DNA of 5,558 nucleotides from a virus (taxonomy: Duplodnaviria > Heunggongvirae > Uroviricota > Caudoviricetes): positions 1 to 5,558 of IMG/VR virus record IMGVR_UViG_2671180921_000028. The stretch is one strand, 5' to 3'. Under the pieces are notes generated by a model, which ran no database searches, was not told the DNA's origin, and saw nothing but the letters and a program-made list of their open reading frames with translations. Made by a program: the position numbers and the translations under genes. Below, piece after piece: positions 1 through 4,310 of this stretch; the stretch's first letter is position 1; each line of letters starts with the position of its first letter.

Positions 1-489
1 ATGAAACAAATGTCACTAATTGAGATGGATGGTTTTCTGAAAGGTAAATGCATCCCACGAGATTTAAAGGTTAACGAAACAAACGCTGAATATCTGGTGC
101 GTAAATTTGCTGAAGCGGAGGCCAAGATTTCGGCTCTGTCCGAAGACCACCAGAAAGCGATTGAGTCAATTAAGCAGGCTGATTCGGCTGTTAAGTTGGC
201 ACACGAGAAGTTTTCAGCGCTGGCGGCGGAGAATGCTGGGCTGAAACACGCAATGGCTGTAACCCTTGAGCATGTGTCGGTCACGGATGCAGGGCAGGCA
301 GGAGTTGCTGCAATGATTATCAATGATGCCCTGTACCACAGCGAAACCCCAGCCACCGACGCTTTCCTGGCTGAAGTGCGTGCGCAGGGGGTGGAGATGA
401 TGCGCGAACATCCATCAATCAAACTTTGCTCTTTGACGCACATATGTGACGAGTTCGCCGCCCAGCTTCGCAAAGGAGGCAACCAGTGA
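1..489 (+). CDS. Hypothetical prophage early-region protein, coiled-coil rich; may be 5'-truncated by the window edge
   Basis: 162-aa ORF from the track. Its stop TGA (487-489) overlaps the GTG start of the next ORF (GTGA), and the downstream RBS GGAGG lies inside its 3' end. No family recognised. Confidence 0.5.
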   Translation: MKQMSLIEMDGFLKGKCIPRDLKVNETNAEYLVRKFAEAEAKISALSEDHQKAIESIKQADSAVKLAHEKFSALAAENAGLKHAMAVTLEHVSVTDAGQAGVAAMIINDALYHSETPATDAFLAEVRAQGVEMMREHPSIKLCSLTHICDEFAAQLRKGGNQ

Positions 490-761
490 GTGAGTCAAAA
501 TGCCAAATTAATGGCAATAAGATAGAACCGTGCGCGGCGTTGACGCAATCCTTGGAGCATGACGCTGAATACACGACGCGAAAAGGTCTGCTGAAATACA
601 AAATCTATAACCATGCATTAATTCATTCACAAGACCTGATCATGCTGCGATCTGGTGAATTTTCTAAATCGCCGATTCGAGTTTCATTTTGCCCGTTCTG
701 TGGTGAAAGTCTGAAAACGTGGGAAGCGGAGGCAACCAGTGAGTGGAAAAAGAATGACTAA
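486..761 (+). CDS. Small Cys4 (zinc-ribbon-like) hypothetical protein
   Basis: 91-aa ORF with GTG start at 486 preceded by GGAGG (475-479, spacing 6). Four Cys arranged C-x9-C ... C-x2-C (CPFCGE). No earlier in-frame ATG. Confidence 0.5.
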   Translation: MSESKCQINGNKIEPCAALTQSLEHDAEYTTRKGLLKYKIYNHALIHSQDLIMLRSGEFSKSPIRVSFCPFCGESLKTWEAEATSEWKKND

Positions 762-963
762 CAGGGAGCTTGTCGATGCCGCGATTAAGCTTGCTGGTGA
801 TTTTTATTCAATGATGGGGTACGCGCATCGCCCTGGATTCAAATATTGGGAATCACCGCATCCGCAAGAGCAACTGGTATTTCAAATGGCCTGCCGTGCT
901 TTTGAGGTTATTCGCGGTTCTGATGTGATGGACGCCGTTGCCGACTTGGAGGATGAAGAGTGA
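739..963 (+). CDS. Small acidic hypothetical phage protein
   Basis: 74-aa ORF with GTG start at 739 preceded by GGAGG (728-732) within the same 18-bp junction sequence as at 475-492. Alternative ATG at 754 has a weaker RBS. Stop TGA 961-963 overlaps the next GTG start. Confidence 0.45.
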   Translation: MSGKRMTNRELVDAAIKLAGDFYSMMGYAHRPGFKYWESPHPQEQLVFQMACRAFEVIRGSDVMDAVADLEDEE

Positions 964-1391
964 ACAAGATTGACTATCAGGCACTGCGTGAGGCGGCAGT
1001 AGCAATTGAAACAGTAGCAATTGAAACAGTAGCAACACCTCAAAAATTGCTGGCATTTCGTATGAAAGTCACACCTCAGGTTGTGCTGGCTCTACTGGAT
1101 GAACGGGAAAGAAACCAGCAATACATCAAACGACGCGACCAGGAGAACGAGGAGATTGCGCTTACGGTTGGGAAGCTGCGTGTTGAGCTTGAGGCAGAAA
1201 AACAGCGGGCAAAGGATCTATTTATGGAAAATGCTCGGCTTAAGTCAGGTGTAGCCGGTCTGATACACCTCGGTATTCGATATGCAGATGTTGAGGTCAT
1301 GAGAATTGCTGGAGATGCCCAGCTTTCTACCCCATTCACTGACAGCATCATAAACAGCATTGCAACAGGCATTCGCATCAAAGGAGAGTGA
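960..1391 (+). CDS. Ead/Ea22-like coiled-coil protein (putative)
   Basis: 143-aa ORF with GTG start overlapping the upstream stop. N-terminal DYQALREAA motif and a central charged coiled-coil (LRVELEAEKQRAKDL) resemble the lambdoid Ea22-like family as recalled from memory. Contains the in-frame tandem repeat. Confidence 0.45.
   Translation: MNKIDYQALREAAVAIETVAIETVATPQKLLAFRMKVTPQVVLALLDERERNQQYIKRRDQENEEIALTVGKLRVELEAEKQRAKDLFMENARLKSGVAGLIHLGIRYADVEVMRIAGDAQLSTPFTDSIINSIATGIRIKGE
998..1038 (+). repeat. In-frame 15-bp tandem repeat (cagtagcaattgaaa x2 plus an 11-nt partial copy) encoding VAIET-VAIET-VAT
   Basis: Two exact 15-nt units at 998-1012 and 1013-1027, then a partial unit at 1028-1038, all inside the 960-1391 CDS. 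Confidence 0.85.
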
Positions 1392-1392
1392 G

Positions 1393-2148
1393 ATGATTCA
1401 CTATCACGGTGGGCCTATTACTCCTGATACGTGCGCAATGAGAGCATGGAAAGGGCGACATGCGTTTATCAGTTTTGCGCATTCAGGCCAGATCAATCTC
1501 GCGGCTGAATACTGTCAGTCGTTCGCGCTGGACAACGGTGCATTCACCGCCTGGAAAGCAACTGGCAAAAACAAAATCGACTGGAGCGATTACTACGAGT
1601 TTGTTGCTCGCTGGAAGAATCACCCAGGATTCGATTTTGCCATTATCCCGGATGTTATTGATGGCGGAGAGGAGGAAAATGATGCGCTTCTGAATGAGTG
1701 GCCTCACGGAAAACTAGTTGGCGTTCCAGTGTGGCACATGAATGAAAGTGACGAGCGATTTATTCATTTGTGCAATGAGTTTCCGCGAGTGGCTATCGGT
1801 AGTTGTGGCGACTATGACGTAAAGCGCCCAACTCTTGCGGTAGCCAGAATGAAAGACCTGATTCGTCACATTGTTGATGAGCATGGTCAGCCGGTTACGA
1901 AACTACATGGATTGCGCATGTTAAATCCGCTGATATTCACAAAATTACCCTTAGCCAGCGCAGATAGTACGAACGTCGCTCGAAACATCGGTATTGATAA
2001 AGCCTGGTCTGGGGCTTGTGCACCTGCAAGTAAAGAGACACGCGCAGCATTAATGGTAGAACGGATTGAGGCACACAATAGCCCTGGTTCTCTTGCGTAT
2101 TGTGAACAACGCGACCGCTTTGAAATGCAATTGCAACTGGCAGTTTAA
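1393..2148 (+). CDS. tRNA-guanine transglycosylase (TGT)-fold protein, DpdA-like putative DNA 7-deazaguanine transglycosylase
   Basis: ATG at 1393 with AAGGAG (1381-1386, spacing 6), immediately after the upstream stop (1389-1391); preferred over the TTG at 1360. Four motifs match bacterial TGT in the same order: LDNGAF (D47) vs TDSGGFQ, FAIIPD (D87) vs IVMIFDE, AIGSCGD vs YAVGGLA, and ADSTNVARNIG (D191) vs FDCVMPTRNARNG. The C-terminal CxCxxC...H zinc subdomain is absent. Alignment done by eye from memory. Confidence 0.5.
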   Translation: MIHYHGGPITPDTCAMRAWKGRHAFISFAHSGQINLAAEYCQSFALDNGAFTAWKATGKNKIDWSDYYEFVARWKNHPGFDFAIIPDVIDGGEEENDALLNEWPHGKLVGVPVWHMNESDERFIHLCNEFPRVAIGSCGDYDVKRPTLAVARMKDLIRHIVDEHGQPVTKLHGLRMLNPLIFTKLPLASADSTNVARNIGIDKAWSGACAPASKETRAALMVERIEAHNSPGSLAYCEQRDRFEMQLQLAV

Positions 2149-2158
2149 GGACTAACAA

Positions 2159-2722
2159 ATGACCACTATAACCAAAGAGCGACTACTGACAATCAAGCAG
2201 TGGCGCGAAACATACGGACCTGGTAGCAACGTTGTACTGCCAGCAGAAGAAGCGGAAGAACTGGCACGGATTGCGTTAGCCTCACTGGAAGTCGAGCCTG
2301 TAAGCCAAACTTACAACTTGCCAGAATTAATCGAAGGCATGGAAGTTTCCATTGATGTAAGTACTTGTGATGCTGATTTAGGTAATCGCTATTTCGGCAC
2401 CGTCACCGAGGCGTTAGAACTTGATACTGCCAAGAATGGTTACATCCTCCTGGTTCAGGACGCAGAGCCAAACTTCGATATAAATGGCAACTCTCCGGTA
2501 ACTCCGGATGGTTGGATAAGCTGTAGTGAGCGAATGCCAAACGATAAACAGTATGTTTGGTGTTGGGGGAAGTCTTACGGCTGGACTGAGTGCGATACCT
2601 TCGAAGGGTATTACGATTGGTCGAGAAACAAATGGTGGGCAATTACTGACGATGGGGAAGAACCGGCATCGAAAGTAACCCACTGGATGACGCTACCGGA
2701 GCCACCGCAGGAGGTGAAGTGA
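2159..2722 (+). CDS. DUF551-domain phage protein
   Basis: 187-aa ORF with ATG 2159 and AAGGA 7 nt upstream. The Trp-rich C-terminus (WISCSERMP ... KVTHWMTLPEPP) is typical of DUF551 proteins in lambdoid early regions. Confidence 0.65.
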   Translation: MTTITKERLLTIKQWRETYGPGSNVVLPAEEAEELARIALASLEVEPVSQTYNLPELIEGMEVSIDVSTCDADLGNRYFGTVTEALELDTAKNGYILLVQDAEPNFDINGNSPVTPDGWISCSERMPNDKQYVWCWGKSYGWTECDTFEGYYDWSRNKWWAITDDGEEPASKVTHWMTLPEPPQEVK

Positions 2723-3006
2723 TGGACTCCTTCGCGAAATATACGATTATTGACTGGGTAGCCTTCCTTCAGTTTTTGCTCATCTGGTTTTATATGGCTT
2801 ACAGGAGTGGACAGTGGATTGTCAGTGTAGCCTGTAGCAAGGGATGGCGTTGGTGGAACCGAAAGAATAAAAAAGCGCTGGCCTTGGATTCGTTTTACGA
2901 AGCATTCAATCTTAACAGCCTTCAGCCTGGTTCTGTCGTTGTAGTCACCACTCAAAGCGGCATGACGATACAAATTCACAAGCCAAAGGAGGAAGGTCGT
3001 GGCTAA
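2722..3006 (+). CDS. Small putative single-pass membrane protein
   Basis: ATG 2722 (or GTG 2719) with GGAGG at 2710-2714, overlapping the upstream stop (2720-2722). Hydrophobic N-terminal segment YTIIDWVAFLQFLLIWFYMAY followed by a basic stretch. Confidence 0.5.
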   Translation: MDSFAKYTIIDWVAFLQFLLIWFYMAYRSGQWIVSVACSKGWRWWNRKNKKALALDSFYEAFNLNSLQPGSVVVVTTQSGMTIQIHKPKEEGRG

Positions 3007-3283
3007 CCTGCAACTTGCCGTTAAAGGTGAATACTTCGATGCCATGATTCGAGGAGAGAAAACGGAAGAGTATCGCCTGTGTAATGACTACTGGAATAAG
3101 CGAATTATGTTCCGGGAGTATGACCGCCTGATTATCACAAAGGGATATCCTAAGCGTGACGATTCCAGCCGCAGAATTGACGTTCCGTATGGCGGATATG
3201 AAATCAAGACAATCACACACCCGCACTTCGGCGATAAACCGGTAAAGGTTTACGCGATAAAGGTAAATATCGGCAATGAATAA
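2999..3283 (+). CDS. ASCH-like (PUA-fold, DUF3850/YqfB-like) protein
   Basis: GTG start 2999 with AAGGAGG (2986-2992), overlapping the upstream stop. N-terminal KGEYFDAMIRGEKTEEYR matches the ASCH signature pattern (F..a..G.KT.e.R) recalled from YqfB and DUF3850 proteins. Confidence 0.5.
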   Translation: MANLQLAVKGEYFDAMIRGEKTEEYRLCNDYWNKRIMFREYDRLIITKGYPKRDDSSRRIDVPYGGYEIKTITHPHFGDKPVKVYAIKVNIGNE

Positions 3284-3287
3284 CAAT

Positions 3288-3580: not shown

Positions 3581-3781
3581 ATGCAACACGAACTACAGCC
3601 TGATTCACTGGTTGATTTGAAATTCATCATGGCCGATACTGGCTTCGGTAAAACCTTCATCTATGACCGGATTAAGTCCGGGGACCTGCCTAAAGCCAAA
3701 GTTATCCACGGGCGAGCAAGATGGTTATATCGTGACCATTGTGAATTCAAAAATAAGCTCTTAAGCCGCGCCAATGGGTAA
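3581..3781 (+). CDS. torI: TorI, excisionase-like recombination directionality factor and Tor response-regulator inhibitor
   Basis: 66-aa ORF recognised as E. coli TorI/AlpA-Xis-type winged-helix protein, with GGAG RBS at 3568-3571. Lies at the att-proximal end of the prophage, as in KplE1. Confidence 0.85.
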   Translation: MQHELQPDSLVDLKFIMADTGFGKTFIYDRIKSGDLPKAKVIHGRARWLYRDHCEFKNKLLSRANG

Positions 3782-3797
3782 AATAGCGGGTAAAATA
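3776..3797 (+). repeat. Direct repeat GGGTAAAATA-gc-GGGTAAAATA overlapping the torI stop codon
   Basis: Two exact 10-nt copies at 3776-3785 and 3788-3797, followed by an A/T-rich tract. Candidate protein-binding sites in the attR arm. Confidence 0.6.
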
Positions 3798-3853
3798 TTT
3801 TTCACATCTAAAAAACACCATTCCAATCAATCCCCTGCCGCTTCAAGTAGATG

Positions 3854-3869
3854 CCTGCAGGGGACACCA
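3854..3869 (+). other. attR core: 16-nt copy of the 3' end of tRNA-Arg(CCU) argW (CCTGCAGGGGACACCA)
   Basis: Matches the 3' T-stem, acceptor 3' strand, discriminator and CCA of argW as recalled. Upstream sequence diverges from the tRNA. Flanked by the inverted repeat CCCCTGC (3832-3838) / GCAGGGG (3857-3863). Confidence 0.7.
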
Positions 3870-4257
3870 GATACCCTTCAAACGAAATCTACCTTCACCC
3901 CGTAAAAGATGGGTTTGGCAGCACACTTGCCTTATATCTACTCATTTTTACTGCAACAGGTTGAAATCTCAGCACTGTCAGAAAGCGCTGATGACTAAAC
4001 AGCCCTGGGCCGGGCGATGTAACCATCACACAGAATCCTGATAGCGAAATATGGCGTGACTCGATACTTCACTCCGCAATGCATTCCTTGATGAATTCGC
4101 AGGACCGTGATACACGGGACAGGTCACTGAATGACGACAATGTCCTGGAAATCAGCGAACCGCGCATCTGAAGTACATTTGAGCGACTGTACCAGAACAT
4201 GAATGAGGCGTTTGGATTAGGCGATTATTAGCAGGGCTAAGCATTTTACTATTATTA

Positions 4258-4301
4258 TTTTCCGGTTGAGGGATATAGAGCTATCGACAACAACCGGAAA
4301 A
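4258..4301. repeat. Perfect 11-bp inverted repeat (TTTTCCGGTTG ... CAACCGGAAAA) with a 22-nt loop, just 3' of cscB
   Basis: Arms at 4258-4268 and 4291-4301. Lies 10-50 nt beyond the cscB stop on the minus strand. No clean U-run on either strand, so it is not a canonical intrinsic terminator. Confidence 0.5.
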
Positions 4302-4310
4302 AGTTTACGT

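Follow-up and report, generated by a model that had tools for sequence, protein, structure and literature searches.

A singleton DpdA-type gene in the accessory region of an Escherichia coli prophage encodes a putative minimal TGT-fold enzyme

A DpdA-type gene at the right end of a prophage

The window, meaning the whole 5,558-nucleotide stretch of DNA analyzed here, is the right end of an Escherichia coli prophage adjoining cscB. Its positions 1-3283 are occupied on the + strand by a packed, co-directional string of accessory (ea-type) genes, delineated from their open reading frames and junctions, in which successive genes overlap at their start and stop codons or are separated by 1-11 nt. 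This string includes a singleton DpdA-type gene of the TGT fold (1393-2148, + strand; 251 aa), an intact ORF of 251 codons whose stop codon ends at 2148. Its ATG at 1393 is found one base past the TGA (1389-1391) of the Ead/Ea22-like gene upstream and 6 nt after a Shine-Dalgarno sequence, AGGAG, read from the sequence at 1382-1386 of the same strand. Since homologues from many genera begin at the same MIHYHG, this ATG and not the in-frame TTG at 1360 was retained as the start. The coordinates and the length proposed by an earlier reading made from the letters alone (hereafter, the sequence-only reading) are thus right, given the AGGAG and the conserved MIHYHG.

Several other features of the window can be recognized. 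The Ead/Ea22-like gene carries at 997-1035 a perfect 15-bp tandem repeat of 2.6 copies, CAGTAGCAATTGAAA, which duplicates AIETV in frame. A 91-aa ORF at 486-761 belongs to PHROG 4030, has a C-terminal CPFCG motif and weakly matches DUF6980; its product is possibly a small zinc-ribbon protein. An ASCH-like gene (2999-3283; PHROG 625, with a Pfam ASCH match at E=0.026 only) is located two genes downstream of the DpdA-like one. The right end of the prophage is marked by a TorI-type excisionase gene (3581-3781, + strand), which matches the PHROG 66 excisionase and whose syntenic counterpart in E. coli EF5-18-41 is annotated torI. The window has this excisionase but no integrase, which is presumably located at the other end of the prophage. 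The 529 bp that extend from the TorI-type excisionase gene to cscB (3782-4310) are conserved in 3483 of 5426 E. coli genomes and therefore contain the prophage/chromosome junction; neither a tRNA nor an Rfam element was detected in this segment or elsewhere in the window.

On the + strand of the window, no promoter-like site was found before 4228, and the first terminator-like hairpins are situated at 3285 and 3317. The order in E. coli EF5-18-41 is ral-kil-rad52-type recombinase-ssb-exonuclease-anti-RecBCD (abc2)-ea22-DpdA-type gene-DUF551-eag-torI, followed by cscB. The homologue of HK106 lies between the recombination genes and xis/int, and that of SPN3UB after the replication genes. Taken together, the lack of an own promoter, the tight coupling to adjacent genes and the operon order with ral and the anti-RecBCD gene indicate an early lytic gene placed in a mosaic accessory region. 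A separately promoted moron expressed in lysogeny was also considered and was ruled out by the lack of a promoter-like site together with the tight coupling to the neighbors.

The gene is present in 204 of the 5426 complete E. coli genomes (about 4%), with at least 95% identity in all but one, and close relatives occur in phages of Salmonella, Shigella, Klebsiella, Vibrio and others. At the DNA level, the copy of this gene in a complete E. coli genome that is closest to that of the window is 99.6% identical. A single location in a complete E. coli genome accounts for at most 63% of the 5.5-kb window, and each piece of the window is common; its combination of accessory genes is a new mosaic. 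The allele of the window is also distinguished by private substitutions. Position 209 (2017-2019, + strand) is Cys; 146 of 149 homologues have Tyr there, as do all the close copies examined from E. coli and IMG/VR. T57 and V109 are private as well, the other copies having Ala. In the structural model described below, position 209 falls within a loop of lower confidence, at some distance from the strand ends. A separate IMG/VR copy (locus L014, 2545-3297) is interrupted by a premature stop, W54*, so the gene is occasionally lost.

Relationship to phage DpdA proteins

In every E. coli genome listed, RefSeq labels the gene "hypothetical protein", and comparison of the protein with Pfam and NCBIfam gave no relevant match, which amounts to an annotation gap. 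The Pfam TGT profile PF01702, which the sequence-only reading had proposed as a check, matched neither the protein nor any of 58 homologues; it is equally negative for CAjan DpdA, an experimentally validated DNA transglycosylase that has no Pfam match at all. Similarly, searches of all PDB sequences by phmmer and by hmmsearch with the family profile retrieved no TGT or DpdA, only chance GCN4 coiled coils, and the validated DpdA1 profile likewise finds nothing in the PDB. Because the validated CAjan DpdA and the DpdA1 profile are just as silent, the silence of Pfam and PDB is uninformative and does not count against a DpdA assignment.

More specific profiles, on the other hand, gave clear matches. 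The protein falls into PHROG 887, "queuine tRNA-ribosyltransferase", at E=9.3e-102, and the same PHROG takes CAjan DpdA (8e-96), HK106 gp29 (9e-102) and 7-11 gp032 (7e-74). Two alignments were built, namely a family alignment of 58 sequences, reaching down to 31% identity and assembled from word-indexed and exhaustive HMMER searches, and a second one of 149 closer homologues; out of 1.84 billion cluster representatives, the exhaustive HMMER search returned 808 at E<=1e-3. When the 58-sequence profile was compared by hhalign with CAjan DpdA, the two aligned over residues 22-197 with 98.9% probability (E=1.3e-17), and with a 28-sequence DpdA1 profile of the CAjan/9g/iggy type over residues 22-199 with 99.05% probability (E=2.1e-18). 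The DpdA proteins of 9g and iggy belong to the group represented by this profile, since they are 69% and 72% identical to CAjan DpdA. A weak match exists, in turn, between CAjan DpdA and the PADLOC model of bacterial DpdA (residues 147-209 against positions 200-259, E=1.3e-3), and these model positions include the GG pocket and the D256 nucleophile of the bacterial enzyme, bDpdA. The protein of the window matches no PADLOC defence-system model, that of DpdA included, and comparison of the family profile with the single Tgt sequence of E. coli by hhalign was without result (0.7% probability). Judged by these profile comparisons, the protein belongs with the phage DpdA branch of the tRNA-guanine transglycosylase superfamily and the resemblance is not due to chance. 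The DpdA-like, TGT-fold assignment made by the sequence-only reading is thereby borne out, both by PHROG 887 and by the significant hhalign matches to CAjan DpdA and to the validated DpdA1 group.

Predicted structure and conserved active-site residues

The AlphaFold2 model obtained with the 149-sequence alignment (pLDDT 89.1, pTM 0.87) is an eight-stranded β/α barrel without any extra domain. Foldseek comparison of this model with the PDB yielded generic TIM barrels only, none at E<=1e-3. Comparison with BFVD gave 27 matches at E<=1e-3, including one protein of Vibrio phage nt-1; the named ones are nearly all phage "queuine tRNA-ribosyltransferase". The predicted fold is that of the TGT superfamily, a (β/α)8 barrel closest to TGT/DpdA structures. 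D47, H172, S189, D191 and S192 are invariant among the 58 homologues, D47 and D191 being also invariant in the 149 closer ones, and D87, H115 and G136 are at least 96% conserved. In the model, D47, D87, H115, G136 and D191 are positioned where strands 3, 4, 5, 6 and 8, respectively, end on the C-terminal side, or immediately beyond, and H172 inside strand 7. The conserved residues are thus predicted to line the catalytic face of the TIM barrel.

The motif D47-N-G-A-F51 (1531-1545, + strand) is located at the C-terminal end of strand 3 (model strand E43-47), with the D47 codon at 1531-1533, within LDNGAF. D47 is conserved in 58/58 homologues, position 51 is Phe or Tyr in 56 of them, and the motif aligns to LDSGAF of CAjan DpdA (D63-S-G-A-F67 of DpdA1). 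D47 would serve as the general acid/base and F51 as the aromatic residue that stacks on the base. The corresponding pair of bDpdA, D95/F99, has the same spacing and precedes the strand 3/helix 3 insertion of that enzyme (PMC10164549). At the opposite end of the barrel sequence, D191 (1963-1965, + strand) is found in S-A-D-S-T (SADSTN) at the end of strand 8 (model strand E189-192). It is conserved in 58/58 and 149/149 homologues, aligns to the invariant D206 of DpdA1 and is the putative catalytic nucleophile. In Salmonella DpdA, the nucleophile D256 opens the strand 8/helix 8 insertion, and mutation of either D95 or D256 of bDpdA abolishes guanine exchange (PMC10164549). Both Asp residues are precisely where the sequence-only reading had put them, in LDNGAF and ADSTN, and the pair maps to active-site positions, that is, to the ends of strands 3 and 8 in the model and to D63 and D206 of DpdA1 by profile alignment.

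The remaining elements of the pocket are assigned with varying ease. After strand 4, the segment D87-V-I-D90 (1651-1662, + strand) provides a candidate base-recognition Asp, which elsewhere also follows strand 4 (D156 of TGT, D130 of bDpdA). D87 is conserved in 57 of 58 homologues and D90 in 32; since hhalign pairs D105 of DpdA1 with D90 and not with D87, the equivalence of the base-binding Asp is ambiguous. The motif H115-x-x-E118 (1735-1746, + strand), at the end of strand 5, aligns to the invariant H132 and E135 of DpdA1 (H115 in 57/58 and E118 in 55/58 homologues). G136 (1798-1800, + strand; 56/58), at the end of strand 6, is the counterpart of the DpdA/TGT GG pocket and aligns to G153/G154 of CAjan, within the stretch that matches positions 200-259 of the bDpdA HMM. 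Finally, H172 in KLHGLR of strand 7 (1906-1908, + strand; 58/58) aligns to the invariant H187 of DpdA1. By analogy with the Asp/His pair D248/H226 of Cap10, which has a spacing similar to that of D191/H172, H172 is likely the hydrogen-bond partner of the nucleophile D191, a role that we infer.

D191 is followed by just 60 residues, in which the conservation of any Cys or His column is 54% at most. With so short a C-terminal segment and no conserved Cys/His set, the protein has no zinc subdomain, in agreement with what the sequence-only reading had claimed. The C-terminal part of DpdA1, about 100 residues, is also unmatched, the hhalign alignment ending near residue 199.

Gene neighborhood in related loci

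With the FolE, QueD, QueC, QueE and YhhQ proteins of CAjan as tblastn queries, nothing was found in the window or in the other loci covered, among them 80 IMG/VR loci flanked by up to 7 kb. Together with Pfam/NCBIfam scans of the window, this supports the earlier statement that it contains no que/folE partner. The sole recurrent same-strand neighbor family is the Ead/Ea22/DUF551 mosaic, present in 42 of 83 loci; as this mosaic is promiscuous, a conserved partner gene was considered and rejected. Neither a ParB-like protein nor a Cap9/QueC-like, CD-NTase or effector gene was identified in the window or among the recurrent neighbors of related loci. In several mycobacteriophages (e.g., Eaglehorse and Quesadilla), the DpdA-like gene 2 adjoins gene 1, a "ParB-like nuclease domain protein". 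This pairing is reminiscent of the bacterial DpdA/DpdB (ParB-like ATPase) and is absent beside the enterobacterial singletons.

DNA methyltransferases are found beside some homologues. A family of 684-aa C5-cytosine methyltransferases flanks the gene in 9 loci (e.g., L042, 4555-6609), and a DPPW-motif, MT-A70-type methyltransferase family flanks it in 9 loci (e.g., L074, 7716-8417), mostly as the immediate next gene. After the homologue of Pseudomonas phage Epa33, a C5-cytosine DNA methyltransferase comes first and an ASCH-annotated gene next (L006, 11267-11938). These ASCH-like and methyltransferase neighbors may reflect a loose DNA/RNA-modification neighborhood, or may be there by chance.

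Discussion

DpdA genes of phages have previously been catalogued by Hutinet et al. (2019), who sorted 182 viruses by their DpdA and que content (PMC6884629). The DpdA column of their Supplementary Data 1 contains SPN3UB (YP_007011024), SfI, HK106, BTP1, SEN1 and 7-11; the "third group", with DpdA but no preQ0 genes, includes 7-11, and the rows of SPN3UB, SfI and HK106 hold a DpdA entry alone (PMC6884629). According to the same study, the singleton DpdAs of γ-proteobacterial phages group separately, by host clade, and may be functionally divergent (PMC6884629). Functional studies of singleton DpdAs were found in the literature only for phages 7-11 and Orion. DNA of phage 7-11, grown on a Q-competent host, contained 50 dADG per 10^6 nucleotides, or 0.02% of G; the modification was dADG and not dPreQ0, and 7-11 is the sole singleton tested by LC-MS with a Q-competent host (PMC6884629). 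DNA of Orion, whose host is without the pathway, contained no dADG (PMC6884629). In addition, the plasmid DNA of E. coli expressing only the DpdA of 9g acquired dPreQ0, at 0.03-0.3% of G, from host preQ0 (PMC6884629). Later work described DpdA3, DpdA4 and the target motifs for CAjan and iggy; none of its tests dealt with singletons.

We give somewhat better than even chances to the view that the gene of the window encodes a DpdA-type DNA-guanine transglycosylase inserting host preQ0 into phage DNA; by analogy with the characterized enzymes, we infer the substrate, the base, the extent of modification and the protection. The interpretation put forward by the sequence-only reading is thus supported, and the specialist literature on this family had already arrived at it. 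Such a minimal phage DpdA, a bare TIM barrel of 251 aa, would be transcribed with the delayed-early left operon on induction or infection. D191 would attack C1' of a target deoxyguanosine in double-stranded DNA, and D47 would protonate the leaving guanine, giving a covalent enzyme-DNA intermediate. This intermediate would then be resolved by a free 7-deazaguanine base, most likely preQ0 supplied by the FolE/QueD/QueE/QueC pathway of the host. The product would be dPreQ0, or dADG after hydration, at some guanines of the phage DNA, and these modified guanines could blunt restriction enzymes that read guanine N7. The use of host preQ0 is feasible, since 9g DpdA alone inserted dPreQ0 in E. coli and the DpdA-only phage 7-11 carried dADG. 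The context also counts for DNA modification, in that the gene is part of an early-left operon with ral and anti-RecBCD genes and methyltransferases are found beside its homologues.

Some observations would speak against this reading. The only comparable singleton tested, that of 7-11 (36% identical), had merely 0.02% of G modified. The protein is devoid of both the large strand 8/helix 8 insertion and the C-terminal part of DpdA1 of about 100 residues; in bDpdA, this insertion holds the zinc site and, in a SAXS model, runs alongside the DNA (PMC10164549). Furthermore, Y209C at a 98%-conserved position and the ambiguous equivalence of D87 as base-binding residue could both weigh against it. 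A minority possibility is that the zinc-less singleton DpdAs form a distinct TGT-fold class and are not self-protective preQ0 inserters. They could, for instance, perform base exchange or excision on host or competitor nucleic acid, or handle a protein-linked deazaguanine in the manner of Cap10, and a distinct class of either kind would explain the trace of dADG in the virion DNA of the tested member.

A change of substrate, with the TGT active site retained, is an unlikely alternative. The singleton branch could exchange or remove RNA bases, for instance in host tRNA, where this would alter Q status and translation, or it could insert a different base such as preQ1, queuine or CDG. The apartness of the singleton DpdAs by host clade and their possible divergence (PMC6884629) fit with such a switch, as do the C-terminal third unrelated to DpdA1, the near-trace level of modification in 7-11 and the idea that DpdA3 uses other bases. 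However, the zinc subdomain and the extra domains by which TGT and ArcTGT hold tRNA are missing here, the closest sequence relatives of known function act on DNA, and DNA methyltransferases are recurrent neighbors. It is decidedly improbable that the target is other DNA, the enzyme removing or swapping the 7-deazaguanines of superinfecting Queuovirinae-type phages or mimicking Dpd-type marks of the host to evade Dpd restriction. Coliphages with 7-deazaguanines exist (9g, CAjan), glycosylases targeting them are a known defence, and the modification levels of bDpdA and 7-11 are similarly low; yet the gene, with no promoter of its own, is placed inside a lytic early operon and is not a lysogeny-expressed moron, and the known anti-deazaguanine glycosylases have other folds.

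The absence of a zinc site in Cap10 and its pair D248/H226, spaced like D191/H172, raise the idea that the protein binds or transfers a protein-linked 7-deazaguanine, perhaps as a phage counter-measure intercepting an NDG-modified cyclase. This seems highly improbable, as no Cap9/QueC-like or CD-NTase gene occurs in the window or in related loci and no PADLOC defence-system model is matched. It is also improbable that the gene is weakened or inactive cargo, disabled in this particular prophage by Y209C or by prophage decay even if the family is active. The replacement by Cys of the Tyr found in 146/149 homologues and in all close copies checked would agree with such a loss, and so would the W54* stop in one IMG/VR copy and the heavy mosaicism, with at most 63% of the window matched by any complete E. 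coli genome. Against it, the ORF is intact and keeps all catalytic positions, about 200 complete E. coli genomes have an intact copy with at least 95% identity, and position 209 is part of a loop that is modelled with lower confidence and is not near the strand ends.

If the preferred reading, insertion of host preQ0 into phage DNA, is true, many temperate phages of gut pathogens would possess a cheap, one-gene anti-restriction mark that is invisible to standard sequencing. Such a mark would bear on phage typing, transduction barriers and deazaguanine-sensing defences.

Comparison with known systems

With bacterial Tgt (PF01702), the protein has no Pfam/HMM match and, for E. coli Tgt, no hhalign alignment. 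The bacterial DpdA of the Dpd system (PDB 7UI4) resembles the protein of the window in that strands 3 and 8 end with the two catalytic Asp residues; the two proteins are only 14% identical, and the phage protein differs by the lack of a zinc site, of Ins8, of a ParB-like DpdB partner and of a PADLOC match. Cap10 of type IV CBASS (PDB 9NTN) likewise has no zinc site and uses an Asp/His catalytic pair. It binds, however, a protein-linked base and belongs to an operon with Cap9, a CD-NTase with a glycine-rich N-terminus and an effector, none of which is found near the gene of the window.

A closer similarity is observed with DpdA1 of the Queuovirinae phages 9g, CAjan and iggy, validated DNA preQ0 transglycosylases of the same PHROG with about 23% identity. 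The shared motifs are D-x-G-A-F, H-x-x-E, the Gly at strand 6, K-(L/V)-H-G and (A/C)-D-S-(T/S), whereas the protein of the window is about 55 residues shorter and its C-terminal part is unrelated. The genetic settings also differ, DpdA1 being linked to folE-queDEC in virulent phages and the gene of the window being unlinked, in temperate phages.

The singleton DpdAs of the third group are the nearest known relatives, the protein being 92% identical to that of SPN3UB, 67% to that of SfI and 36% to those of HK106 and 7-11. The absence of any que gene and the location in the accessory region of temperate phages are common features, and nothing different in kind separates the gene of the window from this group. 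Based on sequence, it is an orthologue of the catalogued "DpdA-only" members, a class already known since 2019. Since the class was described then, the value of this locus is not in gene discovery; it concerns what singleton DpdAs actually do.
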